Assembly: GCA_041391605.1 (NCBI GenBank)
Contig: JAWKNQ010000003.1
Location: 14,724 to 78,723, forward strand
Source of the DNA: Bacteroidia bacterium
Lineage (GTDB): Bacteria; Bacteroidota; Bacteroidia; NS11-12g; UBA955
Reading direction: 5' to 3'
DNA length: 64,000 bases
This document shows, piece after piece, positions 6,009 through 39,138 of this stretch. The notes beneath the pieces are model-generated. The model saw only the letters and a list, made by a program, of their open reading frames with translations. It was not told the origin of the DNA and did not search any database. Positions within the stretch are counted from its first letter, which is position 1; each line of letters starts with the position of its first letter. A program made the translations under genes and the position numbers.

Positions 6009-6789
6009 TCATTTTTCTCCGACAATCTGACCTTTGAACTTTAAATTTATGCGCTTGTATTTATCCCAACCAATCGCGTTTAACCCTTTTAAATAGAACG
6101 TTTTTAAGCGTTTAAATTTATCATCTACATCCTCTGCCGAACCAAATACAATACTATGATTTCCTACCTTAGGAATCAATAGAATATCCATATAATTATC
6201 TACATATAGTTGTTCAATTTGTGAATCCCAAAACTTGTTCATACTGCAGTACTCAGCTATAGCTGTTAAATCTGCTAACAATTTAGTGTGCACAAACACA
6301 GAATCATCAAGGCTTTCAGCTATCATTCCGTTTGCGATAATCACACGTGGTGTATAGCCTGAATTCAAGGGCATTTTATATCCATTTTTTTGCTACATAG
6401 TAACTTTGCCCTTTTCGATTAACGACTCGTAGAATAGGCTTTCTTTGTAATACTTTGATTTGAAGCAAGCCAGAAAGATCTAATAAAACGTCAGCCTTTT
6501 CGATAAAAGGGTATTTTTCAAGTCTCATTTCAATCGAGTCGAGATGTATATTTTGATGCAAACTTCCTAGGCTCAATTTGTTTGTTTCTCCTTGAATTAT
6601 TTGAACAACTTTATTGCTATCTAGAAAGGCCAATTCTTCCTTGGGTTCGATTTCAACTTCAATCCCTGTGAGTTTCAAATTATTCTCTTTCTTTTGAATA
6701 GCCACCAAAGTGATTATTAAAAAAAGAGCCATACCCGACCACATCAATACCTGCTTAAACTTTCGTTTTCCCATCCATTCAACTTTCAT
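6009..6789 (-). pseudogene. ftsQ: cell division protein FtsQ, split into two ORFs (6376..6789 and 6009..6374) by one extra base in an A7 run (T7 on the + strand at 6385..6391)
   Basis: The N-terminal ORF has a TM segment and a POTRA-like region and ends ...SYYVAKKWI*. The C-terminal frame reads KNGYKMPLNSGYTPRV. Removing one A restores ...YYVAKNGYKMPLNS.... Position between murC and ftsA. Confidence 0.8.
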
Positions 6790-8159
6790 AAGTATAAATT
6801 TTGTATTGGCTTTAACAATTGATCAATATTACCTGCTCCCATAATTAGTAGCAGCTCAGGTTTTTCGTTTTCCAACTTTTTAAGTATATTTTCCTTGGCA
6901 ATTAGAATGGGATTATTCTTCATTTTCAAGGCTAAAAATTCTGAATTAATACCCTCTATCGGCAATTCTCGAGCTGGATAAATATCCATTAACCAACATT
7001 CATCTAACAAATCTAATGCAAGAGCAAATTCCTTTCCAAAATCTCTAGTCCTAGAGTACAAATGTGGTTGAAACAAACCTGTTAATTTTTTATCGGGATA
7101 CAAAGCTCTAACAGATTCTATACAGGCTATTATTGCAGCAGGATGATGGGCATAATCATCAATTACAATATGTTTATCGGTCTTTACTAAATACTCAAAC
7201 CTGCGTTTAACACCTAAAAAACTAGAGCACGCTCTTGCTAAATTATCTATAGGTAAGTTTAACAATGAACAAGCTGTTAAAGCGGCAGCTGTATTCTCAA
7301 TATTATGAAAACCTGGCAGTGCATTTTTAACATCTGTCTCCACATTGTTAAAGGCATAATGAAATGTAAAATGGCTGTCCTTTATTTCTCGTTTGCTTAT
7401 GATTGCCTGAGAACTAGGATATGTTCCATACTTAATTGTTCTAACCTTAGACTCAATGTCTAAATGGTCGTTTATTATGGCTATTCCTTCAGGTTTTATT
7501 TTCTCAATAAATTCCACGAAGGTTTTTTTAAATTCAAGGTGCTCATTGTAAACATCTAAATGATCTGGATCCGTAGAAGTAACAATTGCAATATCTGGTG
7601 AGAGTTGAAGAAAAGACCTATCGTACTCATCTGCTTCAACTACCATTAAAGGTTTTGAAAACAAATCAACAGCGTCTTTCTGTTGAATATAATTGCTTCC
7701 AAAATTCGAACTTACTCCACCTAAAAAGGCCGAAAAATTAACGCCTGATGTGTGAAGCATATACGCAATCATACTACTAGTAGTGGTTTTTCCATGAGTG
7801 CCTGCAACAGCAATTGTGTAAGCATCTTTCGATATTAACCCCAAGACTTGCGCTCTTTTATAAATTGGAACATTTTGAGACATTAAATGATTTAACTCAA
7901 TGCTATCTCTAGGAACTGCTGGAGTGTATAAAACTATTGAATTTCTTGTGTTGTAAACTTTGGATGGAATTTGATTTATATCCTCAGAATAATGAATTTT
8001 AAAACCTTCCTTTTCCAATGATCTGGTAAAATCATTGCTTGTTTTATCATAACCATGAACTTCTATTCCTAAAGTCTTGAAATATCGGGCAATTGCACTC
8101 ATACCGATACCTCCGATACCTAAAAAATATGCAATTCGTATTTGATCTATGGCTATCAT
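6786..8159 (-). CDS. murC: UDP-N-acetylmuramate--L-alanine ligase
   Basis: Motifs GIGGIGMSAIA and GTHGKTTTSSM, plus dcw position. Confidence 0.95.
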   Translation of the reverse strand: MIAIDQIRIAYFLGIGGIGMSAIARYFKTLGIEVHGYDKTSNDFTRSLEKEGFKIHYSEDINQIPSKVYNTRNSIVLYTPAVPRDSIELNHLMSQNVPIYKRAQVLGLISKDAYTIAVAGTHGKTTTSSMIAYMLHTSGVNFSAFLGGVSSNFGSNYIQQKDAVDLFSKPLMVVEADEYDRSFLQLSPDIAIVTSTDPDHLDVYNEHLEFKKTFVEFIEKIKPEGIAIINDHLDIESKVRTIKYGTYPSSQAIISKREIKDSHFTFHYAFNNVETDVKNALPGFHNIENTAAALTACSLLNLPIDNLARACSSFLGVKRRFEYLVKTDKHIVIDDYAHHPAAIIACIESVRALYPDKKLTGLFQPHLYSRTRDFGKEFALALDLLDECWLMDIYPARELPIEGINSEFLALKMKNNPILIAKENILKKLENEKPELLLIMGAGNIDQLLKPIQNLYL

Positions 8160-9235
8160 TACATGTTATCTAATTCATCCACAATATTTTTTAACGCATC
8201 AGGCTTGGCAAATCTCTTTAAATTTACTTGCATTTTATTTTGCAACTCAGGATTTGAAATCAAGTTAATTATTTCATGTAATATTTGTTCACTTGCATCT
8301 GAATCTTTCACTAAAATTGCTGCGTCATTTTCAGATAATGCAGAAGCATTTTTTTTTTGATGGTCTTCTGCTGCTGTTGGAAAAGGAACTAATATAGAAG
8401 GCTTATTTAAAAGACAGATTTCACTAACTGAAATTGCTCCAGCTCTTGATACGACAATATCTGCACCCGAATACGCAGTAGCCATATCATTGATAAAAGT
8501 ATGTGCTTGAACACCTCTTAACCCATACGTATCAGCATTAAACATTTTTCCTGTTTGCCACAAGACCTGTATACCATTAGCATGCAATACCCGAATGGCA
8601 TGTTGTATACTGGTATTAATACTTCTTGCACCTAAGCTACCGCCTATTACAAGTACTAAGGGCATTGATTCATCAAATCCAAGTTTTACCTTAGACTCTG
8701 TTTTTAAACTGTGAATTGCCTTATGTATACTTTCTCGAACGGGATTACCTGTTATTACTATTTTGTCTTTGGGAAAGAATTTCTCCATACCTTCATATGC
8801 AACGCATATTCGAGACGATTTATTAGCCATCCACTTATTGGTTAATCCGGCATAAGAATTTTGCTCTTGAATAAGGATGGGGATTTTTTGAGTTGAAGCG
8901 GCATAAATTAAAGCCGAACTAGCAAAACCACCAACTCCAACAACTTTATCTGGTTTAAAACTCTTTATTATTCGCTTTGCCTTATAAATACTTTTTAAAA
9001 ACTTAATTGGCACCCATAAATTGCTAATTCTAAGTTTTCTCTGTATCCCTATAATTGGTAAACCTATAATTTCGTAGCCCGCCTCCGGCACTTTTTCCAT
9101 CTCCATTTTATTTTGTGCACCCACAAATAAAATTTGACAGTTTGGGTATCTCCTTTTTATCTCATTTGCAATTGCAATGGCTGGAAAAATATGCCCTCCT
9201 GTACCTCCGCCTGATATAATTACTTTATTCAGCAT
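8159..9235 (-). CDS. murG: undecaprenyl-PP-MurNAc-pentapeptide GlcNAc transferase
   Basis: Motif GGGTGGHIFPAIA, plus dcw position. Confidence 0.95.
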   Translation of the reverse strand: MLNKVIISGGGTGGHIFPAIAIANEIKRRYPNCQILFVGAQNKMEMEKVPEAGYEIIGLPIIGIQRKLRISNLWVPIKFLKSIYKAKRIIKSFKPDKVVGVGGFASSALIYAASTQKIPILIQEQNSYAGLTNKWMANKSSRICVAYEGMEKFFPKDKIVITGNPVRESIHKAIHSLKTESKVKLGFDESMPLVLVIGGSLGARSINTSIQHAIRVLHANGIQVLWQTGKMFNADTYGLRGVQAHTFINDMATAYSGADIVVSRAGAISVSEICLLNKPSILVPFPTAAEDHQKKNASALSENDAAILVKDSDASEQILHEIINLISNPELQNKMQVNLKRFAKPDALKNIVDELDNM

Positions 9236-10393
9236 TTAATTCCGCTCTTTCAAATCATTTTCAGTTTCTTGTTCTTCAACAGAACGACTTACACTTAACA
9301 AAACACCAAATGTGGCACTTGTAAAAATGATGCTAGTCCCACCCATACTTATAAAGGGTAGTGTCAACCCAGTAACAGGAAACAAACTACTTGCTACAGC
9401 CATATGTATAAATGCCTGCAGCACTAAACTAAATGAAAGCCCGACTGCTAACAATGCGCCAAATGCTTTAGGACTTTTTAATACAATTCGAATTGATCGA
9501 TACAAAATCAAAAGATATAATCCTATTACGGATAGACCACCAAAAATCAATCCGTACTCTTCAATTATAACAGCAAAAATAAAATCTGAATACGGATGCG
9601 GTAGATACGCACTTTGTTCGCCTTTACCAGGTCCTTTTCCAGTCAAACCACCACTAACAATTGCTATTTTGGCTTGGATTGTTTGAAAACTTTCAGTTGA
9701 ATCTTTTCCTTTAAAATTTTCAATTCTAGCTTTCCATGTAGCTGCCCTTCCTGGTAAAATATTTTCAGGTGCATTTAATAAGGTTAACACCCCAATTAAA
9801 GCAACAACTCCAAAAGACCCTGCAAGAAGTGCCAAGTGTCGGAGCCTTGCATTACCAATAAACAAGAGTATTGTGCAAGTAAAAAATAAAACTAAGGATG
9901 TGCTTAAATTTTCAGGCATTATCAGTATACAAATCACACATATATAAGCTAAAATAACTGAAAACCCTTTTAATGAGTTCAACTCTTCTTGTTTACGAGA
10001 CAAGTATCTGGCAATAAACATTATTAAAGCAAATCGTGCAAAGTCACTACTTTGGAATGTAATTCCGAAAATCGTAATAGTACGTTTCGCTTCATTAATA
10101 TCGTTTCCAAAAATAAGTGTACCAATTAATAAAGGAATGGCAATTAAAACTGCAAGTTGTGATATTCTTGAAAAGTATTTATAGTCTAATAAATGGAAAA
10201 AATACATTAGAAAAAACCCACCGAATAAAAACAGCATATGCTTGAATAGAAAATATTCGGTGTTTCCATCTTGCTTTTTAAAAGCGAGTGAACCAGTTGC
10301 ACTGTAAACCGCAAGCATTCCCAATAGCGATAAACTTATCACTGCAAACCAAATGTACTGGTCACCTCTAAATTTGAGCTTGCCTATTCTCAT
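9236..10393 (-). CDS. ftsW: SEDS-family peptidoglycan polymerase FtsW
   Basis: Polytopic membrane protein with the conserved C-terminal SMGGTS motif, plus dcw position. Confidence 0.9.
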   Translation of the reverse strand: MRIGKLKFRGDQYIWFAVISLSLLGMLAVYSATGSLAFKKQDGNTEYFLFKHMLFLFGGFFLMYFFHLLDYKYFSRISQLAVLIAIPLLIGTLIFGNDINEAKRTITIFGITFQSSDFARFALIMFIARYLSRKQEELNSLKGFSVILAYICVICILIMPENLSTSLVLFFTCTILLFIGNARLRHLALLAGSFGVVALIGVLTLLNAPENILPGRAATWKARIENFKGKDSTESFQTIQAKIAIVSGGLTGKGPGKGEQSAYLPHPYSDFIFAVIIEEYGLIFGGLSVIGLYLLILYRSIRIVLKSPKAFGALLAVGLSFSLVLQAFIHMAVASSLFPVTGLTLPFISMGGTSIIFTSATFGVLLSVSRSVEEQETENDLKERN

Positions 10394-10458
10394 TAACTGA
10401 TAATAATTGTATTCAATTAAACCTTAATAGCAAAGTTTAATCTCAGTAAACAATACTA

Positions 10459-11817
10459 TTATAAATTTTTTACTGCGGCTTTGTACTGCCAACCTCTGTC
10501 TTCATAATTTGAAAACAAATCAAAACTTGCACATGCCGGAGAAAGTAAAACTACATCTCCTTTATTTGCAAATCTTTTCGCTACAGCAACCGCTTCTTCT
10601 GCACTGCTTGTATTAAGCATCAAATCTACATCCTTGCCAAATGCAGCATGTATTTTATTATTGTCTAGTCCCATACAAACAATAACTTTTACTTTCTCCC
10701 TGATTAATGGAAGTAAAGAAGAATAATCATTGCCTTTATCAACCCCACCGACTATCCATACAACTGGTTTTTCCATACTTTCTAGAGCATACCATGTTGA
10801 ATTGACATTTGTAGCTTTTGAATCGTTGATAAAATCAACGCCCCCAACTGTTGCTACATATTCTAGTCGGTGTTCGACGTTTTGAAAGTCGGTTAAACTT
10901 TCTCTAATGATGTCCTTTCGAATGTTGAGGACATTAGCAGCTATGGCCGCAGCCATACTGTTGTAACTGTTGTGAATGCCTTTTAAGGCGAATTCATTAA
11001 TAAACATAATTGCTTGTTGTTGTTTAGTGAGGTTTGTTTGTTTGTAATCGAGTAAGTATAATTGTTTATCGGCTACATATGCACCGATATTAAGTGTCTT
11101 GTAATACGAAAATGGAAGCTTCTGAGCTTTGGTAGGATGTGTTTCTAAATTTGAAACTATAGTCTCATCATCCGCACAATAAATTAGAAAATCTGTACTT
11201 GTTTGATTGGCTGTAATCTTAAATTTTGAATCAATATAATTCTGAAAATTGTATTCATAACGATCCAAATGATCTGGTGTAATATTGCATAAAATTGCAA
11301 TATCTGCCCTAAAAGTGTAAGTGTCATCAAGTTGAAAACTACTAAGTTCTAAAACATAATACTCATAGGTACCATCTGCAACTTGTCGTGCGTAGCTTCT
11401 TCCTACATTTCCACCCAATCCTACATTAAATCCAGCTTTCTTTAATAGATGATAACACAACATAGTTGTTGTAGTTTTGCCATTTGTTCCCGTTATGGCT
11501 ATATGCTTGGCTTTAGTAAATTGATGTGCAAATTCAATCTCCGAAACAATTGGAATATTCAATGCTTTAATCTTTTGGATTAGATTTGTATTATTTGGAA
11601 TGCCTGGACTTTTAATAATAAGATCTGCATTTAGAATCAAGTCTTCAGAATGCCCTTCTTCCTCGTAAGCAATTTTAGCCACATCGAGTTCAAGTTTGTA
11701 TTTTTCTTGTATTTGTCCAGCATCTGAAACAAAAACTTGAAAGTCGTGTTTTAAACCGAGTATTGCACAACCAGTTCCACTTTCTCCAGCACCTAATATG
11801 ACTAAACGTTTACCCAA
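10459..11817 (-). CDS. murD: UDP-N-acetylmuramoylalanine--D-glutamate ligase
   Basis: Motif GTNGKTTTT, Mur ligase layout and dcw position. Confidence 0.95.
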   Translation of the reverse strand: MGKRLVILGAGESGTGCAILGLKHDFQVFVSDAGQIQEKYKLELDVAKIAYEEEGHSEDLILNADLIIKSPGIPNNTNLIQKIKALNIPIVSEIEFAHQFTKAKHIAITGTNGKTTTTMLCYHLLKKAGFNVGLGGNVGRSYARQVADGTYEYYVLELSSFQLDDTYTFRADIAILCNITPDHLDRYEYNFQNYIDSKFKITANQTSTDFLIYCADDETIVSNLETHPTKAQKLPFSYYKTLNIGAYVADKQLYLLDYKQTNLTKQQQAIMFINEFALKGIHNSYNSMAAAIAANVLNIRKDIIRESLTDFQNVEHRLEYVATVGGVDFINDSKATNVNSTWYALESMEKPVVWIVGGVDKGNDYSSLLPLIREKVKVIVCMGLDNNKIHAAFGKDVDLMLNTSSAEEAVAVAKRFANKGDVVLLSPACASFDLFSNYEDRGWQYKAAVKNL

Positions 11818-11818
11818 A

Positions 11819-13072: not shown

Positions 13073-13073
13073 A

Positions 13074-18398: not shown

Positions 18399-18439
18399 TC
18401 AGTACTTGCAAATAATTTTGTAAAATAAATTCAAAAAAT

Positions 18440-18601: not shown

Positions 18602-19507
18602 ATGAAAGATTTTTGTTCGTACTATTAAGTCAATTTGCTTTTAATCAATTGTTTTCAGGGTTGCAGCGACGCAGGTGTTTGTTCAATAGGAGGAATGCAA
18701 AGCCATGGTGAAAATGATAAAAATATAGCCTTGCTCTCACATGAGTTTTGCCACTGGCGAACAAAAGGTTCAAATCGTGATTCCACAACTTGAATTTAAT
18801 GCTAAATTGAATGATAAAAACGCTTTACAGTTAAAATTACCCTATAGTTTTATTTCTGGAAATCTTGGGTCGAATAATGGATTGGGAGATATCACTTTGA
18901 GCTTTTCAAAAAAATCTTTTTGAATCTGATAAGGAATTAAAAATTGGATTGAATTTTAGTATTAAATATGGTGTCAATAAATCGGATGCAAAAATTAACT
19001 CATTAAATTTGCCAATGCCTTATCAAACCAGCTTAGAACACATGATTTATTAATTGGATTTGATGCAAAACTATCGAATAAATGGTTGTATGCAATTGGA
19101 TTTCAAATGCCAATTTATCAATTTAATGAAAATGGATATGATACTGCAAAATTCACAAGTAATTTGCCTGAGCAAAAGCAGTATTTCACATCCAATTTAC
19201 TATTCAGAAGACCTGATTTAGTTATTCGATTGATCGTCAATTCAAACTTGGAACTAAATCATTTCTCAGTGCAGGTGTTATTACCGATATATCATTTGGG
19301 TCATGACCGATACACTGGATACAAGTGACAAGATTATGTAATGTATGAAGTAAAGGGCTTACTTTTAATGTAAATTTAGGATAATATGATCCTGAATCAT
19401 TTTCTGCTAGTCTTCGCTATGCTAGTCCCTTGTTAGTGCGAAAAGTAAGACCAGACGGTTTAACTAGATCTTATGTTGCAGGTATAGAATTGAAATACGC
19501 TTTCTAG
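18602..19507 (+). pseudogene. decayed outer-membrane beta-barrel protein gene (about 300 codons, at least 6 frameshifts and 2 in-frame stops)
   Basis: Hand stitching across the three frames gives MK.FLFVLLSQFAFNQLFSGCSDAGVCSIGGMQSHGENDKNIALLSHEFATGEQKVQIVIPQLEFNAKLNDKNALQLKLPYSFISGNLGSNNGLGDITLSFSKK.LFESDKELKIGLNFSIKYGV...PMPYQTSLGTHDLLIGFDAKLSNKWLYAIGFQMPIY...RPDGLTRSYVAGIELKYAF*. The product has a signal peptide and a C-terminal aromatic residue. Confidence 0.7.
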
Positions 19508-24870: not shown

Positions 24871-24954
24871 GCCCATGTGGTGAAATTGGTAGACATGCCA
24901 TCTTGAGGGGGTGGTGACCTTACGGTCGTGCAAGTTCGAATCTTGTCGTGGGCA
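24871..24954 (+). tRNA. tRNA-Leu (anticodon GAG)
   Basis: Hand-folded. Acceptor GCCCATG/CGTGGGC, anticodon stem CCATC/GGTGG, loop TTGAGGG, long variable arm GACC-TTAC-GGTC, T-loop TTCGAAT. Confidence 0.9.
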
Positions 24955-24967
24955 CTTTTGTTCGCAG

Positions 24968-26488
24968 TTACGCATTCACAGAAATGGACTGCAGAATTTC
25001 TTCGATAAACTTTCTGTCATTATTGAGTCTAGGCACCTTATTTTGCCCTCCCAATTTGCCTCTTGTTTTCATCCAATTATAGAAAGTTTGATTTGGCATA
25101 GATTTGACAATTGGCATTTTTAAGGCTATGTCGCTAAAACGTTTTGCCTCATAATCGCTGTTTACTTCTTTCAACTTTTTATCCAGGGCCGTTTGAAAAC
25201 TTTCGATTGAATCAGGTTGACATTCAAACTCTACTAACCATTCGTGTCCGGCATGATCATTTCTATCCATAAAAATTGGAGCGGCGGTATACTCTCTAAC
25301 CTTTCCACCCGTTACTTGGCAAGCATACTCAATCGCTTGCTCCGCATTGTCAATAACCAACTCTTCTCCAAAAGCATTGATGAATAATTTGGTTCTGCCA
25401 GAAATGTGAAATTTATATGGGTTAACAGATTGAAATACAATTGTATCTCCAATTTGATACCTCCACAAACCACTTGTCGTGCTAATGATAACTGAGTAAT
25501 CAACCCCTGGTTCAACATCTCCCAAAACATATGTTTTTGGATTTTCTAAACCTAAATCACTCACTTTTATAAACTCATAGAAAATACCATAATCGGGCAT
25601 AATTTGCATGGATGAATCCAATAAATCTGTCTGCATGCCAAAAAACCCTTCACTTGCGTTATAAGTTTCAAAATAACGCATATCTGGGTTCCGGATTAAA
25701 TCTTTAAAAAGTGATTTATAGGGCTTGAAACTGACTCCACCGTGAATATAAAGCTTTAGATTAGGCCAAATCTCACTAATATCATCTGCTCCTTTCATGA
25801 CTAGTAATTTTTCAAGAAGTACTATCGTCCAAGTTGGAACTCCTGAAATATTTGTAACATTGTCATGAAACACCTTTTCAGCCATTTTTTCCAACTTCAA
25901 CTCCCAATCGTCCATCAGTGCAATTGACTTATCTGGAGTCTTGAGTAAATTTGCCCAAGTTGGCATATTGTTCATCAATACAGCGCTTAAATCACCATAA
26001 TAAGAATTTTGATTAAATGCATTAATTTTATGACTACCGCCTATCAATAGACTTTTACCATCAAATATTTCTGATTCAGGGACATTGAGACAATAATAAC
26101 TCAATATATCCTTTCCTCCTCTAAAATGGCATTCTTCAAGTGTTTCATAACTAACTGGAATGAATTTGCTTTTGTCTTGAGTGGTTCCACTGCTTTTGGC
26201 AAACCAAATAATTTCTCCCGGCCAAAGAACATCTGGAATGCCTTTCATTATTCGTTCGATATAAGGTTTTAAAGATTCGTAGTCTTGTATGGGAAACCGA
26301 TTTCTAAAAACTTCATAAGAAGTTATTGACTTGAAATCATAAAGCTTGCCCCACTCAGTATCTTTTGCGTCTGAAATCAGGCGTTTCAACACATCTTCTT
26401 GCACTTCTGCTGAATTATTGATAGCATTTTCAATAGAGGCTAATCGCTTCCTGAAATACCAACTCATCATTGTGTTAAAAACAGCCAT
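24968..26488 (-). CDS. GH3 (auxin-responsive promoter) family acyl-adenylate-forming protein
   Basis: 506 aa. The N-terminal MSWYFRKRLASIE... and the overall pattern are typical of Bacteroidota GH3-family proteins. Confidence 0.7.
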   Translation of the reverse strand: MAVFNTMMSWYFRKRLASIENAINNSAEVQEDVLKRLISDAKDTEWGKLYDFKSITSYEVFRNRFPIQDYESLKPYIERIMKGIPDVLWPGEIIWFAKSSGTTQDKSKFIPVSYETLEECHFRGGKDILSYYCLNVPESEIFDGKSLLIGGSHKINAFNQNSYYGDLSAVLMNNMPTWANLLKTPDKSIALMDDWELKLEKMAEKVFHDNVTNISGVPTWTIVLLEKLLVMKGADDISEIWPNLKLYIHGGVSFKPYKSLFKDLIRNPDMRYFETYNASEGFFGMQTDLLDSSMQIMPDYGIFYEFIKVSDLGLENPKTYVLGDVEPGVDYSVIISTTSGLWRYQIGDTIVFQSVNPYKFHISGRTKLFINAFGEELVIDNAEQAIEYACQVTGGKVREYTAAPIFMDRNDHAGHEWLVEFECQPDSIESFQTALDKKLKEVNSDYEAKRFSDIALKMPIVKSMPNQTFYNWMKTRGKLGGQNKVPRLNNDRKFIEEILQSISVNA

Positions 26489-26597: not shown

Positions 26598-27614
26598 GTG
26601 TCAATCATTCAATATAAATATTCAACCATAAGGATTAATTTTGTTTTAATAGTCATATTAGTCGTTTTGGGGTGTTGTAATGAATCAACAAATTCGGATT
26701 CAGATGAATATTCTATTTCCAATAAAACAGATTCAATTCAAGGATTAATGTCGGAGACTAATGCTTATTACTTGGGAATAATACTGGCAAATGGTCGAAT
26801 ATTGGAATATACCAAAGGTCTGAATTCGAATAAGGAATCACTAAATTCGAATACAATTTTTGAGGCTGCATCTTTAAGTAAAACTATAACAGCTTATGTC
26901 TATTGGAAAATGTTATTAAATGGTCAAAAAATTCAAAAACTTCAAGGACTTGAGTGCGAGACTCAAGATACCTTGGCAATAAATTGCCATCATTTGTTAT
27001 CGCACAGTTTAATGAGTACCGATTCATGCATTCATTTACCAGATTCAATAAAATTTAAATACTCTGAAAACAATTACTTGCTTTTGCAAAGATTGATAGA
27101 AAGTTATTCAAGTAAAAACCTTGAAAGTTTAGCTTCAGAACATGTCTTTAAACCACTCAATATGACAAAATCAAGTTTTATTTGGAGAGATTATAATAAC
27201 TATGTTAATGGATATTATCAAAATTTCAAGAAGCATAGAGAAATAAGACATTATTCAACGCCTAAATCAAATGGAACTCTTTACACTTCTGGAAGAGATA
27301 TGCTTAAATTTACTCAAGAACTACTCAAAAGCAACTGCCTAGATTCCATGGCTGTTGAACAAGTTAAAATACCTGGATTCACCCAGCTTGCTTGGGGCAG
27401 AGGAATAGGAATTGAATACCAAGGTGATAAGAAATTTCTATGGCAATGGGGCAATAACTGGTCATATAACCATATTCTTTTAATTGACAAGACTTCTGGC
27501 TTCACAATTGTATGTTTAAGCAATAGTATAATTGGAGCAAGTAAAATACGTACACTTTGTAATTTCTTGATGGATAGACAGTTTCAACTCTTTGATTACA
27601 TCGATTGGTATTAA
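26598..27614 (+). CDS. serine hydrolase (beta-lactamase/transpeptidase-like fold)
   Basis: SxxK motif in FEAASLSKTITAY, preceded by a signal/lipoprotein-like N-terminus. The track start is GTG. Confidence 0.65.
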   Translation: MSIIQYKYSTIRINFVLIVILVVLGCCNESTNSDSDEYSISNKTDSIQGLMSETNAYYLGIILANGRILEYTKGLNSNKESLNSNTIFEAASLSKTITAYVYWKMLLNGQKIQKLQGLECETQDTLAINCHHLLSHSLMSTDSCIHLPDSIKFKYSENNYLLLQRLIESYSSKNLESLASEHVFKPLNMTKSSFIWRDYNNYVNGYYQNFKKHREIRHYSTPKSNGTLYTSGRDMLKFTQELLKSNCLDSMAVEQVKIPGFTQLAWGRGIGIEYQGDKKFLWQWGNNWSYNHILLIDKTSGFTIVCLSNSIIGASKIRTLCNFLMDRQFQLFDYIDWY

Positions 27615-27689: not shown

Positions 27690-27771
27690 GCGGATGTGGC
27701 GTAATTGGTAGCCGTGCCAGACTTAGGATCTGGTGCCGAAAGGCGTGGGGGTTCGAGTCCCTTCATCCGCA
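27690..27771 (+). tRNA. tRNA-Leu (anticodon TAG)
   Basis: Acceptor GCGGATG/CATCCGC, anticodon stem CCAGA/TCTGG, loop CTTAGGA, long variable arm, T-loop TTCGAGT. Confidence 0.9.
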
Positions 27772-27783
27772 CTAAATTTAAAG

Positions 27784-27819: not shown

Positions 27820-27872
27820 AACAAAACACAGCAAAATACTGCTTAGAAAAAAAATAAACCTTTAAAAAACAG

Positions 27873-29257
27873 ATGGAATTAAAATTCAATAAAATTGACG
27901 ACCTAAACGCAACTTTAGTTGTTGAACTTGCAAAAGAAGATTACAGCGAAGCGGTTGAAAAAGAACTAAAAAAGCATCAAAAACAAGCTGTCATTAAAGG
28001 TTTCCGTCCAGGAAGTGCTCCTTTGTCCATGATAAAAAACATGTATGGCAAAAGCGTTTTAGCTGAAGAAATTAATCGTTTGGCTAGCAAAGGTTTATAC
28101 GATTACCTAAAGGAGCAAAACATTGACATCATCGCTCAGCCTTTGCCGAGTGAAACTGTAAAATCAGATATTGATTTAGACAAAGGTGAGAACTATACTT
28201 TTGCTTTTGATTTAGGATTGTCTCCAGAATTTGATTTTAACATTAGCGACAAAGATAAACTTGATAAATACATCATTTCAGTAGACGACTCTGAAGTTGA
28301 TAAAAGAAATTGAAACTTTGCGCAATAGAAATGGCAAAATAGAAGATGCTGACTCAGCTGAAGAAAGATATTATATATGCTGTATTAAGTGAACTTGATG
28401 ATAATTCAGAATTGTTTGAAGGTGGTGTTCAAAACAAAGAAACCTCTTTAACGCCTGAACTTGTTAAGAACGAAGAATTGAAAAAGAACTTAATCGGTAT
28501 TAAAAAAGGTGCTGAATTGAATGTAAATATTTACGATTTATTCAATGAAAATCACAGCATCATTAGCAGTTCTTTAGGAATAAGCAAAGAGGCTGTTTCC
28601 GATTTAAATCCAATATTCAATTTAAAAGTAACAGAAATCAAAAAACGTATTCCTGCAGAATTAAATCAAGAATTTTTTGACAGCGTTCTAGGTAAAGATG
28701 TGGCAACTGATTTAGATGGACTTAAAGCTAAAGTTAAAGAAAACCTCGAAGCATATTACGCAAGCGAAAGTGACCACCAAGTTGAACATATGATCACTCA
28801 TTTACTTGAAGAAAAACACAATGTTCCACTTCCAAATGAATTTCTTAAACGCTGGTTAATAAACACAAAGGAAGAAGAATATAACGAAGGAAATATCGAT
28901 GAAAGATATGAGAATGAATCTAGAGTATTAAAAGAAGTTTTAATACGCGAAAAGGCTGCAGCTCAATACGATATTAAAGTTGAAAAGCAAGATATTGAAG
29001 ATGCCTCAATGGGATATACTTTATCGATGTTCAGAAATTACGGACTTCAAAATCCAGAATTTGAATTTGTTAAGAAATTTAGTGATGACAGTCTTAAAAA
29101 GAGAGATTACATCGAACAAATGAATGACATAGCAGTTCGAAGAAAAGTCTATAACAAGGTAAAAGAACTTGTTACATTTAATGAGATAAAAGTATCTATT
29201 GAGGAGTTTTACAAGTTAATTGAAGAACATAATCAAACTCACAACGCTGAGCATTAA
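27873..29257 (+). pseudogene. tig: trigger factor, interrupted by two +1 insertions about 60 nt apart
   Basis: ORF 27873..28313 ends ...DDSEVDKRN*. Frame 1 at 28306..28365 reads EIETLRNRNGKIEDADSAEE. Frame 2 then continues DIIYAVLSELDD... to 29257. The extra bases are most simply in the A runs at 28302..28305 and 28364..28366. Confidence 0.8.
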
Positions 29258-29378: not shown

Positions 29379-29404
29379 TATTATTATTGTTATAAAATAC
29401 CATT

Positions 29405-30100
29405 ATGGATCAAGGAAAAGAATTTAAAAAATATGCAACTAAGCATTTAGGTTTAAACAGTTTAACTGTAGACCGCTACATCAACAACGCAAGCCCTAAG
29501 GTTATTACAAACCTTACTCCAAATATTATTGAAGAACGTCCACTTAACATTGCTGCTATGGATATTTTCTCAAGATTAATGATGGATAGAATCATTTTCC
29601 TTGGTGTTCCAATAAATGACGAAGTCGCAAATATCGTAATGGGGCAATTGTTATTCTTAGAAAGTTCAAACCCAAACCGAGATATTCAAATATACATAAA
29701 TAGCCCAGGAGGTAGTGTTTACGCTGGATTAGGCATTTATGATACTATGCATTTCATACCAAGTGATGTGAGTACAATCTGTACTGGAATTGCTGCTAGT
29801 ATGGCTGCGGTATTAATGTGTGCCGGAGAAAAAGGCAAAAGAACTGCATTGAAACACAGTCGCATAATGATTCATCAACCTCTAGGAGGAGTTCAAGGTC
29901 AAGCAACTGAAATCGAAATCACTTATAGAGAGATATCAAAATTGAAAAAGGAATTATACGATATTATAGCACTTCATAGTGGTCAAACATTTGAAAAAGT
30001 TGAAAAGGATAGTGACAGAGATTATTAGATGACAGCAGAAGAAGCTGTTGCTTATGGTATGGTGGATGATATCCTAACTAAGGCAAAAGGTAAAAAATAA
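29405..30100 (+). pseudogene. clpP: ATP-dependent Clp protease proteolytic subunit with an in-frame TAG at 30026..30028. The ancestral frame continues to a TAA at 30098..30100.
   Basis: Catalytic Ser (AASMAA), His (MIHQPLGG) and the Asp region (DSDRD) all lie upstream of the stop. After the TAG the same frame reads MTAEEAVAYGMVDDILTKAKGKK* and ends in a TAATG overlap with clpX. Confidence 0.8.
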
Positions 30101-31332: not shown

Positions 31333-31965
31333 GTGGTTATGGATTCCATTCGAAATGCTTACCCCAACTTTGAATCAGAACTGATTACAGAAATCGATTC
31401 AACTGCTATTACTAGGGAAGTGAAGGCCGGTGAGATTTTACTTAAAACTGGCCAATATATTCAAGATACTATCCTTGTTTTGCAAGGTAAAATTAAGATT
31501 TTTCGAGAAGATCAAGATGGTAATGAGTTTTTTATGTACTATTTGACTCCTGGTCAAGCATGTGCCTTATCAATGATTTGTGCAGCAAAAATGGAAACCA
31601 GTAAAATTATGGCTATTGCAACTGAAGATTCTAAATTATTAATGTTACCCCTTAATAAAATGGAGAATTGGATGTCCAATTATAAATCCTGGTATTCGTT
31701 TGTTGTAAATACTTATAGAGATCGATTTGAGGAGATGCTATTGGTACTTGATCAAGTTGCTTTTAGAAGCATGGACGAAAGATTAGAATTTTATTTAAAA
31801 CGACAAGCAGAAATACTAAATAAGAAACACATTCATCTTACCCATCAGGAAATCGCCAATGATTTAAATTCTAGCCGAGAAGTTATATCTCGCTTATTGA
31901 AAAAGATGGAACAAAGAGGCTTATTGACACTTCATAGGAATGATATTGAATTGCATATTTTATAG
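31333..31965 (+). CDS. Crp/Fnr-family transcriptional regulator
   Basis: cNMP-binding-like N-domain and a C-terminal HTH (THQEIANDLNSSREVISRLLKKME). The real start is probably the ATG at 31339. Confidence 0.8.
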   Translation: MVMDSIRNAYPNFESELITEIDSTAITREVKAGEILLKTGQYIQDTILVLQGKIKIFREDQDGNEFFMYYLTPGQACALSMICAAKMETSKIMAIATEDSKLLMLPLNKMENWMSNYKSWYSFVVNTYRDRFEEMLLVLDQVAFRSMDERLEFYLKRQAEILNKKHIHLTHQEIANDLNSSREVISRLLKKMEQRGLLTLHRNDIELHIL

Positions 31966-32072
31966 CACAATATAAATTTGTAATTCTTTAAGAATCTTTA
32001 CTTAATCAAACTTTAAAAAGTGCAGAAATTGCCTTCCCATTTATTATTTTTCATTAATTTAGCCTCCCCTAT

Positions 32073-33983: not shown

Positions 33984-35062
33984 TAATCGCAATTACTGGA
34001 AATATTTTCAGTGATCAACGTATGCAGAGAATTGCAGGAGCACTGTCTGAATCTGAATGGAATGTTGATCTTTATTATCGCAACTATTTTAAAAATAAAA
34101 TTCTCAAACCCGTTTCGGAACCTTCATACACATTCAATGTATTTGGCATTAAGTCCAAATTTAAATCAGGCATCTTATTTTATTTAGCATATAATGTTCA
34201 ACTTTTTATTAAGTTAGTGTTTAAAAAAACAGATATGTTTTACGCAGTAGATAGCGATACTTTGCCTGCATTTATTCTACTAAAAACCATCAGAAGAAAA
34301 CCACTAATTTACGACGCTCATGAATACTTCTCTGAAGTGCCTGAATTAAGTAATTCACCTTTCAAGAAGTGGGTTTGGCATACGATTACAAAAATCGGTG
34401 TGAGACTTTCAAAAACTTGTATTACTGTTGGGCCTGCAATATCAAATGAACTTAAAAGAAGATATGGTAAAACGTTTGTAAGTATACGAAATGTTCCTTT
34501 ACAAAGGAAAATAGAATTTCCTCCAACAGATTCACTTCGAGCCATATTATATCAGGGTGCTTTGAATAAAGACAGAGAAATTGAACTTCTCATTCGCGCT
34601 ATGGACAAACTGCCAAACTTTAAATGTTTAATTGCTGGAGAAGGAGATTTAAGTCAATCATTGCGCGAATTGGCTAAAAATTCATCTAACGTTGAATTTT
34701 TAGGTTTACTATCTCCAAATGCATTAGCCGAACTGACGCCCAAATGTTATGCGGGATATAATTTATTAAATGCAGAAGAAAGTCTCAGTTATTATTATTC
34801 ATTGAGCAATAAATACTTTGATTATATGCAGGCAGAAATTCCCTCAATATCATCTAAACTGCCAGAATATTTGAGATTAAATGAAGCCTTTAATTGTGGT
34901 GTCTGTATTGAAAACAATGAAGCTGAATTAATTAAAATTATTAAAAATTGGGATAGCAATCCTGCAGAATATCAGAAATTAAAAGAAAATGCTAAGTTTG
35001 CTGCAGAAAAGAATCATTGGGAATTGGAAAAACAAAAATTAATTGAATTGATAGATCTTTGA
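33962..35062 (+). CDS. glycosyltransferase (GT-B, family 1/4-like)
   Basis: 366 aa with a typical GT1-like C-terminal half (AGEGDL...). It overlaps recQ by 22 nt and the next GT by 4 nt. Confidence 0.6.
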   Translation: MDKKKTLIIAITGNIFSDQRMQRIAGALSESEWNVDLYYRNYFKNKILKPVSEPSYTFNVFGIKSKFKSGILFYLAYNVQLFIKLVFKKTDMFYAVDSDTLPAFILLKTIRRKPLIYDAHEYFSEVPELSNSPFKKWVWHTITKIGVRLSKTCITVGPAISNELKRRYGKTFVSIRNVPLQRKIEFPPTDSLRAILYQGALNKDREIELLIRAMDKLPNFKCLIAGEGDLSQSLRELAKNSSNVEFLGLLSPNALAELTPKCYAGYNLLNAEESLSYYYSLSNKYFDYMQAEIPSISSKLPEYLRLNEAFNCGVCIENNEAELIKIIKNWDSNPAEYQKLKENAKFAAEKNHWELEKQKLIELIDL

Positions 35063-36186
35063 AAAATCACCTCCATATCGTATCCTTTGATGTACCTTAC
35101 CCTTGTGATTATGGAGGGGTAATTGATATTTATCACAAAATTAGATGCTTAAACAATATTGGAGTTTCTATCACTCTGCATTGCTTTCAATATGGAAGAG
35201 ATGAAGCAAAACAATTGAATAAAATATGCAAGAAAGTTATTTATTACAAACGCAGTAAATATAGAAATCCCTTTATTGGTGAAATTCCATATATTGTTCT
35301 CACTCGAAGTAATGATGAGCTTCTCACGAATTTGTGCAAGGATCAATCCCCTATTCTTTTCGAAGGTATTCATACAACTTTTTTTCTTAATCATTCTAAA
35401 TTGAAAAATCGCTTTAAAATGGTAAGAAATCATAATATTGAGCACGATTATTATAAAAGTTTAGAACAAGTAGAATCTAATTATTTCAAAAAGTATTTTT
35501 TCAGGAATGAATCTGATAAACTTAAGACTTATGAAAAAAGATTGAAATTAGCGAGCAAGGTATTGGCTATTTCACCATCAGATCACAATTACTTGAATAA
35601 GAAATATCATAATTCTATATTGATACCTGCTTTTCATTCAAATGATTCGGTTCATATTTCCGAAGGTACAGGGAAATTTGTTTTGTATCATGGTAACCTA
35701 TCGGTAGGCGAAAACAATTTTGCGGCACTTTACTTGGTAAATAAAGTTTTTTCAAAAATCAGGATTCCTTGTGTAATTGCAGGTAATAATCCAAGTAAGG
35801 AACTTATTAAAGCTTGTCTTAAACACTCGCATATTAATCTTATTGACAACTGGAATAATGAACAAATTATGGATGCTGTTGCAAATGCCCATATAAATGT
35901 TCTGCCAACATTTCAAGCAACAGGGATTAAACTAAAACTCCTAAATGCTTTATATTCAGGACGTTTCTGTTTGGTTAACCCGACTATGGTTGACCAAACG
36001 ACTTTAGAAAAAGCTTGTATCATCGCTAAAAACTCTAAGTCATTTATAGCTGAAATAGAAAATGTTTGGAAATTGCCGTTCACTGAGAAACTAATTCAAG
36101 AAAGAAGAACCCATCTAGAAAATAGTATTTTCGAAAATACTGTGAATGCCAATAAAATAGCAGAGCTAGTGGGTCTTAAAACTTAA
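35059..36186 (+). CDS. glycosyltransferase-like protein (GT-B fold)
   Basis: 375 aa, translationally coupled to the preceding GT. The family call is weak. Confidence 0.45.
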   Translation: MKNHLHIVSFDVPYPCDYGGVIDIYHKIRCLNNIGVSITLHCFQYGRDEAKQLNKICKKVIYYKRSKYRNPFIGEIPYIVLTRSNDELLTNLCKDQSPILFEGIHTTFFLNHSKLKNRFKMVRNHNIEHDYYKSLEQVESNYFKKYFFRNESDKLKTYEKRLKLASKVLAISPSDHNYLNKKYHNSILIPAFHSNDSVHISEGTGKFVLYHGNLSVGENNFAALYLVNKVFSKIRIPCVIAGNNPSKELIKACLKHSHINLIDNWNNEQIMDAVANAHINVLPTFQATGIKLKLLNALYSGRFCLVNPTMVDQTTLEKACIIAKNSKSFIAEIENVWKLPFTEKLIQERRTHLENSIFENTVNANKIAELVGLKT

Positions 36187-36240
36187 GCGTTTTAATTGGA
36201 TAATTCGTCTTAGAATGCTTGAAAACTGTACAAAAAGAAG

Positions 36241-36248
36241 TAATTTTG
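36241..36248 (+). promoter_or_regulatory. -7 box TAATTTTG, 4 nt upstream of the GTG start at 36253
   Basis: Exact TAnnTTTG match. Confidence 0.3.
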
Positions 36249-36252
36249 TGCT

Positions 36253-36609
36253 GTGGGTGGAATATTAAGTGCATTAACAAGGAAACAACCAAAACCAAGA
36301 GGTTTTAGATATAAACCTCGTTACTACAATGCTGATAAAGCAGAGTTTCAAGCCTATGTAGAAAAACTTAGAGCAGAAAGAGATGCTAGAGACAGAGGTG
36401 AATATAGACCTGATTTCAAAGGAAAATTCACTTCTAAAACGAAAAGAGGCTCAGCATATCAAAGACAAATAGCCCTTTATAATTTAAAATTAATTGTTGT
36501 ACTTATCGTAGTTTGCATTGCAGCCTATTATTTGAGTGAATCAGGACACATATCTAAAGGTATAAATTCCTTTCTAGAGGTTTTTAGCAAGAAAAATGGA
36601 TTGTATTAA
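36253..36609 (+). CDS. hypothetical small membrane-anchored basic protein
   Basis: 118 aa with an Arg/Lys-rich N-half and one TM segment ([15 protein letters not shown]). It overlaps the mutL start by 14 nt. Confidence 0.45.
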
Positions 36610-38393
36610 ACTTCTACCTGACAACATTGCAAATCAAATTGCAGCTGGTGAAGTTGTCCAAAGACCTGCTTCAGTTGTCAAAGAGTTGCTTGAAAACTCT
36701 TTAGATGCTGGAGCTACAGATATCAAACTGAATATAAAAGAAGGTGGCACTTTACTTATTCAAATTATTGACAATGGTGACGGTATGGGTGTTACCGATG
36801 CTCGAATGTGTTGGGAAAGACATGCTACATCTAAAATAAAAAGTGCAGATGATTTGTTTAAATTGAGAAGCTTTGGATTTAGAGGTGAGGCTTTGGCTTC
36901 CATTGCAGCAATTGCACATGTGGAAATGAAAACTAAGCGTAAAGAAGATGAACTTGGCACCACGATTCAAATTGAAGGAGGAAAAGTAATTAGCAAAGCC
37001 CTGTTGCTTGTCTAAATGGAACCCAGTTTTCAATTAAAAACTTGTTTTTCAATGTTCCTGCAAGACGAAATTTCCTCAAAAGTATACCTGTTGAATTAAG
37101 ACATATCATTGATGAATTTACACGAGTTGCACTTCCACAACCAAATATAGCTTTTAGTTTAACACAACAACAAAGAAGTATTCGATTTGAGACCTAGTTC
37201 GTCTGCACAAAGAATCACAGTACTATTGGGTAAAAAAAACGATAAAGATTTTTTAACAGTTAACGAAACACACGATTTATTAAAAGTTTCAGGGTTTGTA
37301 GGTAAACCAGAGATAGCGAAGCGCACAAAAGTGAGCAGTATCTTTTTGTGAATAATCGATTTATAAAGATCCATATTTGAATCATGCAGTTGTTAATGCA
37401 TTTGATCAAATGATAGCAAAAACAGTTTCCTATATGTTTTATTCCTAGAAATAGACCCCAAGCGAATTGATGTAAATATTCACCCAACAAAGACTGAAAT
37501 AAAATTTGATGACGACCGTGCAATCTACATACTAGTTAAATCTGCTATTAAAAAGGCACTTGGTCAATATATGTCAATACCAGACATCGATTTTGCCGAC
37601 CCTAAAGTATTTAATCCTGTCGGATTCGAAAAATACAACAATGAGAACATGGCAGTTGCACCTCAAATTAAAGTTAACAAATCTTATAATCCGTTTGGTG
37701 ATGCACCATTCAAATCTGTCCAGAATAAACAATGGCAGCAATTATTTGGCAATTCGTATCTTGATGAAGATAGTTCAATTTCTAATTTAAATCTACAACA
37801 AGAAATCGAAATAGAAAAAACTAATTTTAAAATTGAACATGCTTTTCAACTACCAAATGGATTTATTGTAACAGAATACAAAAACCATTTATTGATAGTG
37901 GATCAGAGAGCAGCTCATGAACGAATTTTATATGAAAAATATTTAAATAACATAAAAAAACGTGCAGCTCCAATTCAACAATTACTATTTCCTAGGACCA
38001 TAGAATTATCAAAACAAGATTATGCTCTTGCTCATGAAATCATGAATGAACTTAAAGATATTGGTTTTGATGTAGCAGATTTTGGAAAAGAATGCTTAAT
38101 CATTAATGGAGTACCTGCAGAAACTGCTAAAGGCAGTGAGAAAGACTTACTAGAAGGAATAATTGAATACTTCAAGCACAACGCCGACCAGTTTGCAGGA
38201 GATAAAAGAAAGACCTTAGCTGTCGCGCTTGCACAAAATGAAGCAATATTTCGAACTAAAACCATGGAACAAGAAGAACTTATTTCACTACTCAATCAAT
38301 TGTGTTTGTGTGCGATAATTTCAATTCAGACCAAATGGAAAACACATTTATATTGAATTTAGCTCTGATAAAATTAACGACCTTTTTAAATAA
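36596..38393 (+). pseudogene. mutL: DNA mismatch repair protein MutL, full length but broken by at least 7 single-nucleotide frameshifts
   Basis: The N-terminus is intact ([39 protein letters not shown]). My stitching continues ...[22 protein letters not shown]...[24 protein letters not shown]...[60 protein letters not shown]...PNGKHIYIEFSSDKINDLFK*. Frame switches are at about 36998, 37161, 37331, 37366, 37420, 38302 and 38331. Confidence 0.85.
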
Positions 38394-38398
38394 CAAAA

Positions 38399-39138
38399 AT
38401 GGGAAGATTTGAACTTACTCCAGTCATACAACAAATCCTGATAGGATGCGTAGTATTATTTATTGGAACATACTTATTAGAAGGAAGAGAATACTTTGAT
38501 TTGAATAATATTTTGGCTTTTCATTACCCTAAAAATGAACTTTTTAAACCATGGCAGATTATTACTCATATGTTTATGCATGGTGGAATTGCTCATTTGG
38601 CTTTCAATATGTTTGCTTTGGTATCCTTGAGGGTAACAATTGAAAAAATCGTGGGTAGTAAAAGTTCTTTATTCTATTTTTTGTTTCAGGCTTAGGCTCA
38701 ATTGTTCTACACGTAGCTATCCAAATATGGCAAGTTTATCAAATTTCTGGATTAATTCTGCCTTCACTTTCAGAATTAGGTGTGGAAGTTCAAGGAGATA
38801 AAATATTTCCAAATGGCACCAGCGCAGTACAAACTCAAGAAAACTTAAATACTGTTGGTAGAATATATTTCGGTGCTGTTGTTGGGGCGAGTGGAGCCAT
38901 TTATGGAATTGCAGTAGCTTTCGCATTTTATTTCCTAACACAGGATTGGTTTTTATTTTATTCCTTATCCTATCAAGGCTAAATACATGATTCCAGCTCT
39001 AATTGGTTTAGATTTATTTTTGGATTTAGCAATTTCAAATGGGACCCAATAGCGCACTTTGCTCATATAGGTGGTGCTTTATCAGGGTTTCTTTTGGTTT
39101 ATTATTGGCGTAAATTCGATAAAACCAATTTCTGGTAA
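38399..39138 (+). pseudogene. rhomboid-family intramembrane serine protease, broken by 3 single-nucleotide frameshifts
   Basis: HMFMHGGIAHLAFNMFAL (H..H...N motif) and GASGAIYG (catalytic GxSG) lie in different frames. The stitched C-terminus is ...IGFYFIPYPIKAKYMIPALIGLDLF.GFSNFKWDPIAHFAHIGGALSGFLLVYYWRKFDKTNFW*. Switches are at about 38664, 38944 and 39020. Confidence 0.8.

Follow-up and report, generated by a model that had tools for sequence, protein, structure and literature searches.

In bacterial pseudogenes, deletions outnumber insertions, and genes for outer-membrane proteins are common among the real pseudogenes. In endosymbionts, frameshifted genes can be rescued when the polymerase slips at poly(A) tracts. 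The mutation rate of mismatch-repair-deficient Pseudomonas was 2.34e-8, as compared with 1.65e-9, per site per generation, and indels made up 6.8% of the mutations; in mismatch-repair-deficient lines, substitutions and indels occurred at a ratio of about 14:1, the indels being generally located in homopolymer runs (PMC4316635). Broken reading frames are also known as products of sequencing: PMC9262707 links the truncating indel errors of older nanopore chemistry to homopolymers, and authors of long-read metagenome assemblers regarded frameshift-truncated proteins as being, in general, errors (PMC13087279).

The locus compared here with these systems is a window of 64,000 nucleotides (the whole stretch of DNA that was analyzed), which belongs to a public NCBI contig of 156,827 bp. 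Its genes were compared with intact orthologs using our own protein-to-DNA aligner, in which frameshifts are allowed, and by DNA alignment to a congener. The frameshift-aware alignment revealed a total of 26 lesions, comprising 22 indels of 1–2 nt (eleven of −1, four of −2, and seven of +1, i.e. 15 deletions vs seven insertions) and four in-frame stops, that were grouped in four patches and borne by six genes: ftsQ, an outer-membrane-type gene (OMP), tig, clpP, mutL, and a rhomboid-family gene. The initial annotation had counted about 19 indels and three stops; these lesions do exist in the sequence, but it had overlooked a small number of indels as well as the TAA stop at 18626, and its per-gene counts are kept for ftsQ (one), tig (two), and clpP (one) and raised for OMP (nine, not eight), mutL (nine, not seven), and the rhomboid gene (four, not three). 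Its statement that the lesions are confined to these six genes, about 6.3 kb, was borne out, since alignment to relatives detected no internal lesion in the 31 other genes covered in the 3–46 kb region; at 46–64 kb, each gene is one continuous ORF encoding the expected domains. The sole exception is a 1-nt deletion at about 9247 in the 3′ tail of ftsW (9236..9260, minus strand), seven codons before the stop; it alters the last ~7 codons (385 aa vs 389–392 aa in relatives) and is probably harmless. No other indel was found beyond the four patches, and the rest of the window holds this one benign indel in ~57 kb. The six genes amount to 6,290 bp, or 9.8% of the window, and the probability that all 25 uniformly placed lesions would fall there is P ~1e-25, in agreement with the earlier assertion that a uniform error process cannot give the pattern. 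A later origin of the lesions, after deposition, was ruled out: among the gene calls of the NCBI record are precisely these broken fragments (ClpP of 207 aa, Tig of 146 + 303 aa, MutL of 139 + 261 aa, a C-terminal FtsQ of 121 aa, a rhomboid piece of 98 aa, and an OMP piece of 60 aa), and the lesions therefore belong to the deposited sequence. Inspection by eye showed no sequence motif common to the surroundings of the four stops or to those of the indels. By eye, several deletions take out a G beside A-rich sequence.

The collections searched contained no further assembly of this species, and the nearest DNA, ~84% identical, came from the congener, which is represented by JGI metagenome contigs (L088–L094) that are colinear with the window at a DNA identity of 84–85%. 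The comparison with a sister species, already proposed in the initial annotation, showed that the congener carries tig, clpP, mutL, the rhomboid gene, and ftsQ unbroken, and the orthologs are likewise unbroken in every relative in which they could be checked (L081–L085, L088–L092), OMP being checkable in distant relatives only. The ftsQ gene (6009..6789, minus strand) is split into ORFs at 6376–6789 and 6009–6374 by a single +1 lesion that turns T6 into T7 at 6385–6391 of the plus strand (A7 when read on the coding strand), where the congener has T6; FtsQ of the relatives is unbroken at 259, 274, and 277 aa. The tig gene for trigger factor (27873..29250, plus strand) is split by a +1 at 28302 (A3 to A4) and by a 2-nt deletion at 28362, where AG is missing from GAAGAGAAAG, and is whole in L081 (459 aa), L089, and L090. 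In clpP (29405..30097, plus strand), an in-frame TAG stands at 30026–30028, a G to A difference from the TGG (Trp) of the congener; past this TAG, 22 codons remain conserved, and ClpP has 231 aa in relatives. The mutL gene (36596..38390, plus strand) contains nine indels (−1 at 36992, −2 at 37166, −1 at 37329, −1 at 37364, −2 at 37421, −2 at 37431, +1 at 38304, +1 at 38310, and −1 at 38328) and no in-frame stop in its repaired frame, and it is whole in L081, L083, and L088 (601 aa) and in L082 (603 aa). The rhomboid-family gene (38399..39135, plus strand) has four 1-nt deletions (38662, 38926, 38957, and 39017), keeps the GASGA serine and the histidine motif, and is whole at 246–247 aa in L081, L082, L083, and L088. 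Programmed recoding, i.e. frameshifting, read-through, or transcriptional slippage that would keep the genes functional, could be invoked for the A7 run of ftsQ, but the 22 frameshifts differ in sign, have no common motif, and lie mostly outside slippery runs, the stop codons are of three kinds, and not one lesion is shared by a relative, which leaves this explanation with a practically negligible probability. Codon reassignment was rejected along with it, on the grounds of three stop types, both frameshift signs, and no sharing by relatives.

Amino acid differences were then assigned to the window branch or to the congener branch with the use of outgroups. In the intact genes, 104 changes fell on the window branch vs 127 on the congener branch, and in the broken genes 31 vs 27 (MutL 10:9, rhomboid 3:4, Tig 7:8, ClpP 2:2, and FtsQ 9:4, window:congener). 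This congener-polarized test thus revealed neither a window-branch excess of amino acid change in the five broken genes nor a lineage-wide acceleration of substitution, the window branch having the fewer changes in the intact genes. The mutator background suggested by the initial annotation is at odds with this result and with the absence of any concentration of lesions in the longest homopolymer runs. Together, mutL and the rhomboid gene bear 13 indels without extra substitutions, and window-branch changes as few as theirs would be expected with P = 0.0012 at three substitutions per indel and with P = 7e-7 at five. Values of dN/dS against the congener were 0.012–0.049 for the broken genes and 0.005–0.11 for the intact ones, with dS ~1. 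Among the 121 columns with conservation of at least 97% across 117 homologs, repaired MutL had one mismatch, as compared with three among 168 for intact MurE; no excess of mismatches was observed at the conserved columns of Tig and ClpP, and one of 42 was mismatched in OMP. The density of substitutions was not raised near the lesions, although this test is weak against a background divergence of 16%, and the patches are therefore not generally noisy. A three-taxon relative-rate test with distant relatives (~70% identity), in which the broken genes were no outliers, had low power and was replaced by the congener-polarized test. According to these tests, all made on sequence, the broken genes have remained subject to ordinary purifying selection until now.

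They bear directly on the reading that all six genes are genuine and very recent pseudogenes, for which selection was relaxed gene by gene or operon by operon, perhaps after the loss of mutL. Gene-specific decay of this kind, preferred in the initial annotation, would agree with lesions limited to six genes with clean neighbors, with the broken genes being adjacent operon partners, with four nonsense codons (that of clpP derived from TGG by a G to A change), with the preponderance of deletions, and with the uniform spread of lesions across OMP; bacteria in which indels predominate have also been reported (PMC8717266). However, 5–10 lesions per kb imply a long neutral period, yet the window branch has no excess of substitutions and dN/dS is unchanged. 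The reading needs at most 1–2 substitutions per indel, whereas the lineage's own intergenic spacers show ~6 mismatches per gap event and mutation-accumulation data 10–14 even without mismatch repair. Moreover, no lesion indel reaches 3 nt, the longest homopolymers are unaffected, and the lineage shows no genome-wide acceleration. A joint loss of ftsQ, tig, clpP, and mutL would also be unusual for a clade of environmental metagenomes, in which all examined relatives keep whichever of the five genes could be checked. The preference for decay is thus poorly supported, and we consider it unlikely that all six genes are real pseudogenes.

The size and the context of the indels were compared with the lineage's non-coding DNA. 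All of the 22 lesion indels are 1–2 nt long, and the repaired proteins align to those of the congener free of gaps, whereas seven of the 16 non-coding gaps counted between the window and the congener measure 4–18 nt (P ~0.001 to 0.04 in a hypergeometric test, depending on the counting of one divergent spacer). The association with homopolymers, which the initial annotation had proposed to check, was present and modest (mean longest run within 3 nt of 3.7 vs 2.9, P = 0.0025), with runs of at least 6 touched by only two of the 21 scored sites, among which the +1 lesions at 38304 and 38310 were taken as one +2. The longest runs of mutL (A8 at 37232, A7 at 37954, and several 6-mers) carry no lesion, which is the opposite of what replication slippage in the cell would give. 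Within mutL, five pairs of lesions are spaced by no more than 40 bp, and one gap of 873 bp is lesion-free (each P ~0.025), and the cluster at 38304–39017 crosses the mutL/rhomboid boundary; for OMP, the rhomboid gene, and tig, lesions placed uniformly along the gene would fit the data, and the OMP patch does not extend beyond its gene. Real, localized bursts of mutation in kb-scale tracts, such as error-prone repair synthesis at DNA breaks or the like, would explain both the sub-gene clustering in mutL, including the cluster that runs into the rhomboid gene, and a large number of indels without a substitution clock. Nonetheless, there is no direct evidence of such bursts, four independent tracts per 64 kb are implausibly many, known error-prone polymerases also give substitutions, of which no excess is seen here, and clones losing ftsQ, tig, clpP, and mutL should be counterselected, yet an assembly represents the dominant genotype; we find this explanation scarcely credible. 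A slim chance is left to the lesions being real in the sense that a free-living, freshwater-type Bacteroidota population has very recently lost mutL, ftsQ, tig, clpP, the rhomboid protease, and OMP via clustered frameshift mutagenesis. The process would have to consist almost purely of small indels and act in kb-scale tracts, and the cells would have to survive without an intact ftsQ, or slippage at the A7 run would have to rescue it. If true, the case would be moderately interesting, both for an indel-only and spatially clustered mutational process and for a free-living bacterium having lost genes of division and proteostasis.

Since the substitutions that accompany real gene decay are missing, most of the lesions are probably, though by no means certainly, base-level consensus errors in short low-quality stretches of the deposited assembly, and we infer a technical cause. 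The error stretches would be from tens to several hundred bases long, in a contig that is otherwise accurate and probably belongs to a draft genome or a metagenome-assembled genome; sparse or noisy long-read support, gap filling, or incomplete polishing would be candidate sources. The organism itself would then most likely have intact and functional copies of ftsQ, tig, mutL, and the rhomboid gene, as judged from the sequence comparisons. The initial annotation had named locally poor consensus as an alternative; it is now favored at least for these four genes, whereas the four nonsense codons do not fit it. With ~57 kb essentially error-free, the error model therefore needs a several-hundred-fold local contrast in error rate. 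The affected genes are core housekeeping genes, a point counted in favor of consensus errors. The clade occurs in metagenomes whose sample identifiers look environmental or freshwater, which is likewise counted in favor. Four of the broken genes form adjacent, probably co-transcribed pairs (tig-clpP and mutL-rhomboid), an arrangement that polar inactivation could also give and that is counted against consensus errors.

The OMP gene (18602..19507, plus strand; ~300 aa) belongs to an uncharacterized Bacteroidota family, lies divergent from mraZ, and carries nine lesions, namely the stops TAA 18626, TGA 19326, and TAA 19382 and frameshifts at approximately 18735 (+1), 18915 (+1, at an A7 run), 19036 (−1), 19230 (−1), 19278 (+1), and 19347 (−1). 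Its intact homologs have 310–349 aa; one of them passes the Pfam PF13557 cut-off, and matches to porin and OMP beta-barrel families are subthreshold. The lesions are evenly spread and end within ~100 bp of both gene ends, while the neighboring mraZ and DinB-family genes are lesion-free; even, gene-confined lesions between clean flanks are the pattern of a gene-specific process and count against consensus errors. The repaired protein matches 41 of the 42 strongly conserved columns, as intact homologs do. The best homolog among those retrieved is at most 54% identical, whereas the congener's other genes are 88–99% identical, and therefore OMP may be dispensable in the genus, or may merely be unassembled there. 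A congener contig covering the locus was not found by cluster look-ups and two metagenome scans, of which the first gave zero matches and the second only MraZ relatives (81–88% identity, and three more of ~42%) plus a 1.3-kb contig (L112) in which the genes are ordered differently and OMP is absent. In consequence, the changes in OMP could not be polarized.

Because three of the four nonsense codons, which do not fit indel-type errors, lie in OMP, this gene may be a genuine pseudogene. A mixed origin, with OMP as a real pseudogene, perhaps the clpP TAG as a real variant, and the indels of mutL, the rhomboid gene, tig, and ftsQ as assembly errors, would also agree with the even and gene-restricted lesions of OMP, with the frequency of outer-membrane genes among real pseudogenes, with the lack of a retrieved homolog above 54% identity, and with the fact that the case against decay is strongest for mutL and the rhomboid gene. 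On the other hand, three stops normally bring many missense changes, and the repaired protein has kept nearly all its conserved columns; the best joint probability for OMP under real decay is ~0.02–0.03 by a rough calculation, and two causes for similar-looking lesions are less parsimonious. We regard a mixed origin as quite unlikely. Under the consensus-error explanation, the four nonsense codons (18626, 19326, 19382, and 30026) are unexplained by an indel-type model, three stops in 0.9 kb from a few substitution errors per patch having P of roughly 1e-3 (a rough estimate), and either a real variant or an erroneous substitution may underlie the clpP TAG. The initial annotation had seen the nonsense codons as favoring decay; they stand as an unexplained residue, while most of the lesions are probably errors.

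Taken at face value, the contig would describe a natural mutL-null lineage that also lacks ftsQ, tig, and clpP, which is a striking claim, and the case is mainly a cautionary one: with the broken genes apparently under normal purifying selection, pseudogene counts and metabolic inferences drawn from the assembly would be inflated. It also illustrates a read-free route for testing such lesions, in which a congener is found, substitutions are polarized with outgroups, and the size and context of indels are compared with those in the lineage's non-coding DNA.

Among known systems, host-restricted or bottlenecked bacteria such as Mycobacterium leprae and Sodalis resemble the window in that genes unbroken in relatives have been hit by several frameshifts and stops, in the involvement of DNA-repair and envelope genes, and in the excess of deletions over insertions. 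Unlike them, the window has no raised dN/dS, no branch acceleration, and no deletions longer than 2 nt, its coding density is otherwise high with no evident insertion sequences, and its relatives come from environmental metagenomes. With mutL- or mutS-null mutators it shares a disrupted mutL, in the deposited sequence, and the small indels that are a hallmark of mismatch-repair loss, but it differs from them in the absence of a substitution excess, in the untouched longest runs, and in mutL itself being hit nine times. Compared with the indel errors of long-read or hybrid assemblies, as detected by IDEEL-type checks, the window differs in the restriction of lesions to four patches with ~57 kb clean, in the four nonsense substitutions, and in an only modest association with homopolymers; it resembles them in that 1–2 nt indels split well-conserved housekeeping genes without accompanying substitutions.

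The lesions were catalogued with a protein-to-DNA aligner tolerating frameshifts and in-frame stops, which was written for this analysis and queried with orthologues from syntenic contigs of more distant relatives (L081-L083, spanning tig to dnaK, and L084-L085, spanning an uncharacterised outer-membrane-type gene, here OMP, to ftsZ), while base-level placement was taken from DNA alignment to a congener. All six genes named in the initial annotation were broken in the window and intact in L081-L085. The ftsQ gene carries a +1 insertion turning a T6 run into T7 (6385-6391), tig a +1 at 28302 and a -2 at 28362, clpP a TGG to TAG change at 30026 with 22 codons downstream still conserved, mutL nine indels from 36992 to 38328, the rhomboid gene four 1-nt deletions from 38662 to 39017, and OMP (18602-19507, plus strand) stops at 18626, 19326 and 19382 together with six frameshifts. 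The total of 22 indels and 4 stops exceeds the 19 and 3 counted initially, although the pattern described then, a confinement to six genes, was borne out, as no internal lesion was found in the 31 other window genes aligned to relatives. Were 25 lesions placed uniformly, the chance of all of them landing within the 6.3 kb of these six genes would be about 1e-25. The sole frameshifting indel detected outside the four lesion-bearing patches is a 1-nt deletion at the 3' end of ftsW (9236-9260, minus strand), which, compared with the congener and the distant relatives, lies seven codons ahead of the stop and alters the last ~7 codons (385 aa versus 389-392 aa in relatives).

The window is coding-dense, with a G+C content of about 33%, and its genes follow an order typical of Bacteroidota: cell-division and cell-wall genes clustered from mraZ to ftsZ (3-18 kb), tig-clpP-clpX (28-31 kb), recQ, two glycosyltransferase genes, mutL, the rhomboid gene, rpiB, tatC and dnaK (32-46 kb), and a purF-like gene, a helicase gene and capsule genes (47-64 kb). 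Two tRNA-Leu genes (anticodon GAG, 24871-24955; anticodon TAG, 27690-27772) enclose a GH3-family gene (24968-26488) and a beta-lactamase-fold gene (26598-27614). The purF-like 630-aa ORF (48742-50634, minus strand) gave a weak, partial match to the purF equivalog (118 bits versus a cut-off of 350, best over residues 111-347) and may encode a divergent glutamine amidotransferase, not canonical PurF.

An NCBI contig of 156,827 bp is the recorded source of the window's MurE product, and the protein collection holds the broken fragments as entries from that same contig (ClpP, 207 aa; Tig, 146 and 303 aa; MutL, 139 and 261 aa; a C-terminal FtsQ piece of 121 aa; rhomboid, 98 aa; and an OMP piece of 60 aa). 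Since these fragments are gene calls of the NCBI contig, the lesions are present in the public record; a ClpP in which Trp takes the place of the stop was absent from the protein collection. The 90%-identity clusters of the fragments contain full-length JGI metagenome proteins (MutL, 601 aa; Tig, 489 aa; MurE, 487 aa), and that of the FtsQ fragment includes a full-length 259-aa FtsQ from a Logan assembly. The contigs that carry these proteins (L088-L094) share the window's gene order at 84-85% DNA identity and were therefore assigned to a congener, in which tig, clpP (231 aa), mutL, the rhomboid gene (247 aa) and ftsQ (259 aa) are intact. The collections yielded no contig from the window's own species. 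Some gene calls in relatives begin too far upstream, namely clpP in L081 (1639-2364, an N-terminus about 10 residues too long) and tig in L089 (3101-4570, called as 489 versus 459 aa), and aligning them to the window consequently yields false "events" ahead of the real start codons.

The best explanation for the bulk of the lesions, and in our judgment a probable one, is a locally poor consensus, which the initial annotation had offered as an alternative to decay. All 22 lesion indels measure 1-2 nt, and once repaired, the proteins show no gaps in alignment with those of the congener, whereas 7 of the 16 non-coding gaps counted between window and congener measure 4-18 nt (hypergeometric P ~0.001 to 0.04, depending on the treatment of one divergent spacer). 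Slippage inside the cell, with or without mismatch repair, is expected to hit long runs first, in line with PMC4316635; enrichment of the lesions near homopolymers was mild (P = 0.0025), nearby runs were all of 3 nt or fewer at 11 of 21 scored sites, runs of 6 or more were touched by only two, and the A8, A7 and several 6-mers of mutL were untouched. Many 1-nt deletions seem to drop a G beside A-rich sequence (AGA to AA, GGA to GA; 36992, 37329, 38662, 39017, 19036, 19347 and 9247) and not to shorten A/T runs, which could be a platform-specific error signature. Upstream of tig (27833-27865), three A-run length differences from the congener (+1, +1, +2) within 40 bp may be natural spacer variation or part of the tig low-quality stretch.

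The spatial evidence on artefact versus a gene-specific process is mixed: (i) the mutL lesions are clumped, with five pairs within 40 bp and a lesion-free gap of 873 bp (P ~0.025 each), and the clump at 38304-39017 crosses the mutL/rhomboid junction; (ii) placement within OMP, the rhomboid gene and tig is compatible with uniformity, and the OMP patch (18626-19382) stays within the gene, its neighbours being clean.

OMP belongs to a family that occurs widely in Bacteroidota, where most annotations call it hypothetical, and whose intact members (310-349 aa) have a signal peptide, then a conserved QGCSDAG-x-CS motif, and an aromatic C-terminal residue. Pfam links it to outer-membrane families weakly or sporadically: one homologue scores above the Phenol_MetA_deg cut-off, and porin and OMP beta-barrel families match another below threshold. 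In the window, L084 (341-1288) and L085 (4998-6047), the gene is located upstream of mraZ in divergent orientation, and it is missing from that position in the 1.3-kb contig L112. To yield three stops in 0.9 kb, substitution errors would have to number in the dozens, and none are seen in the mutL patch; roughly estimated, real decay is likelier for OMP than errors of the indel type, and we therefore retain a mixed scenario, with OMP genuinely dead, albeit as an improbable one. Such decay is awkward, because three stops normally bring many missense changes, but only 1 of 42 conserved columns is mismatched, the same as in intact homologues. The initial point that the nonsense codons are not homopolymer-type errors stands, as indel-type error does not account for four stops.

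That every lesion is real and the inactivation very recent is somewhat less improbable, though still unlikely. The artefact explanation fits poorly with the four nonsense codons, of which the one in clpP is a clean change in a well-conserved stretch, and it requires short stretches of much lower quality alongside the other, near-perfect ~57 kb; few supporting long reads, hybrid-assembly gap fills or unpolished segments are suggested causes. Measured by the substitution clock, the lesions of mutL, rhomboid, tig and ftsQ are instantaneous, and their size spectrum is error-like. If 9 (mutL) or 13 (mutL plus rhomboid) independent indels had arisen by neutral decay, substitutions must have accumulated too. 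Each window-congener amino-acid difference was assigned to one branch using the distant relatives as outgroups, which gave 31 window versus 27 congener changes for five broken genes (MutL 10:9, rhomboid 3:4, Tig 7:8, ClpP 2:2, FtsQ 9:4). The intact genes gave 104 versus 127, that is, no window-branch acceleration, a result that speaks against either a long-standing mutator or a relaxed-selection lifestyle. Window-congener dN/dS was 0.012-0.049 in broken versus 0.005-0.11 in intact genes (dS ~1). Among 121 MutL columns conserved in at least 97% of 117 homologues, the repaired protein departs from 1; intact MurE is mismatched at 3 of 168 strongly conserved columns, and the same test on Tig and ClpP revealed nothing out of the ordinary. 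With this lack of substitution excess, the low dN/dS and the 1-2-nt indels, the decay with a mutator background proposed initially is unsupported for the bulk of the lesions.

For MutL and rhomboid together, the probability of so few window-branch changes is 0.0012 at 3 substitutions per indel and 7e-7 at 5. Between window and congener, non-coding DNA has about 6 mismatches for each gap event, and a naturally mismatch-repair-deficient Pseudomonas accumulates 2.34e-8 substitutions and 1.65e-9 small indels per site per generation, an indel share of 6.8%, near the ~10% of E. coli (PMC4316635). Authors of long-read metagenome assemblers regard frameshift-truncated proteins as generally errors, some being genuine pseudogenes (PMC13087279).
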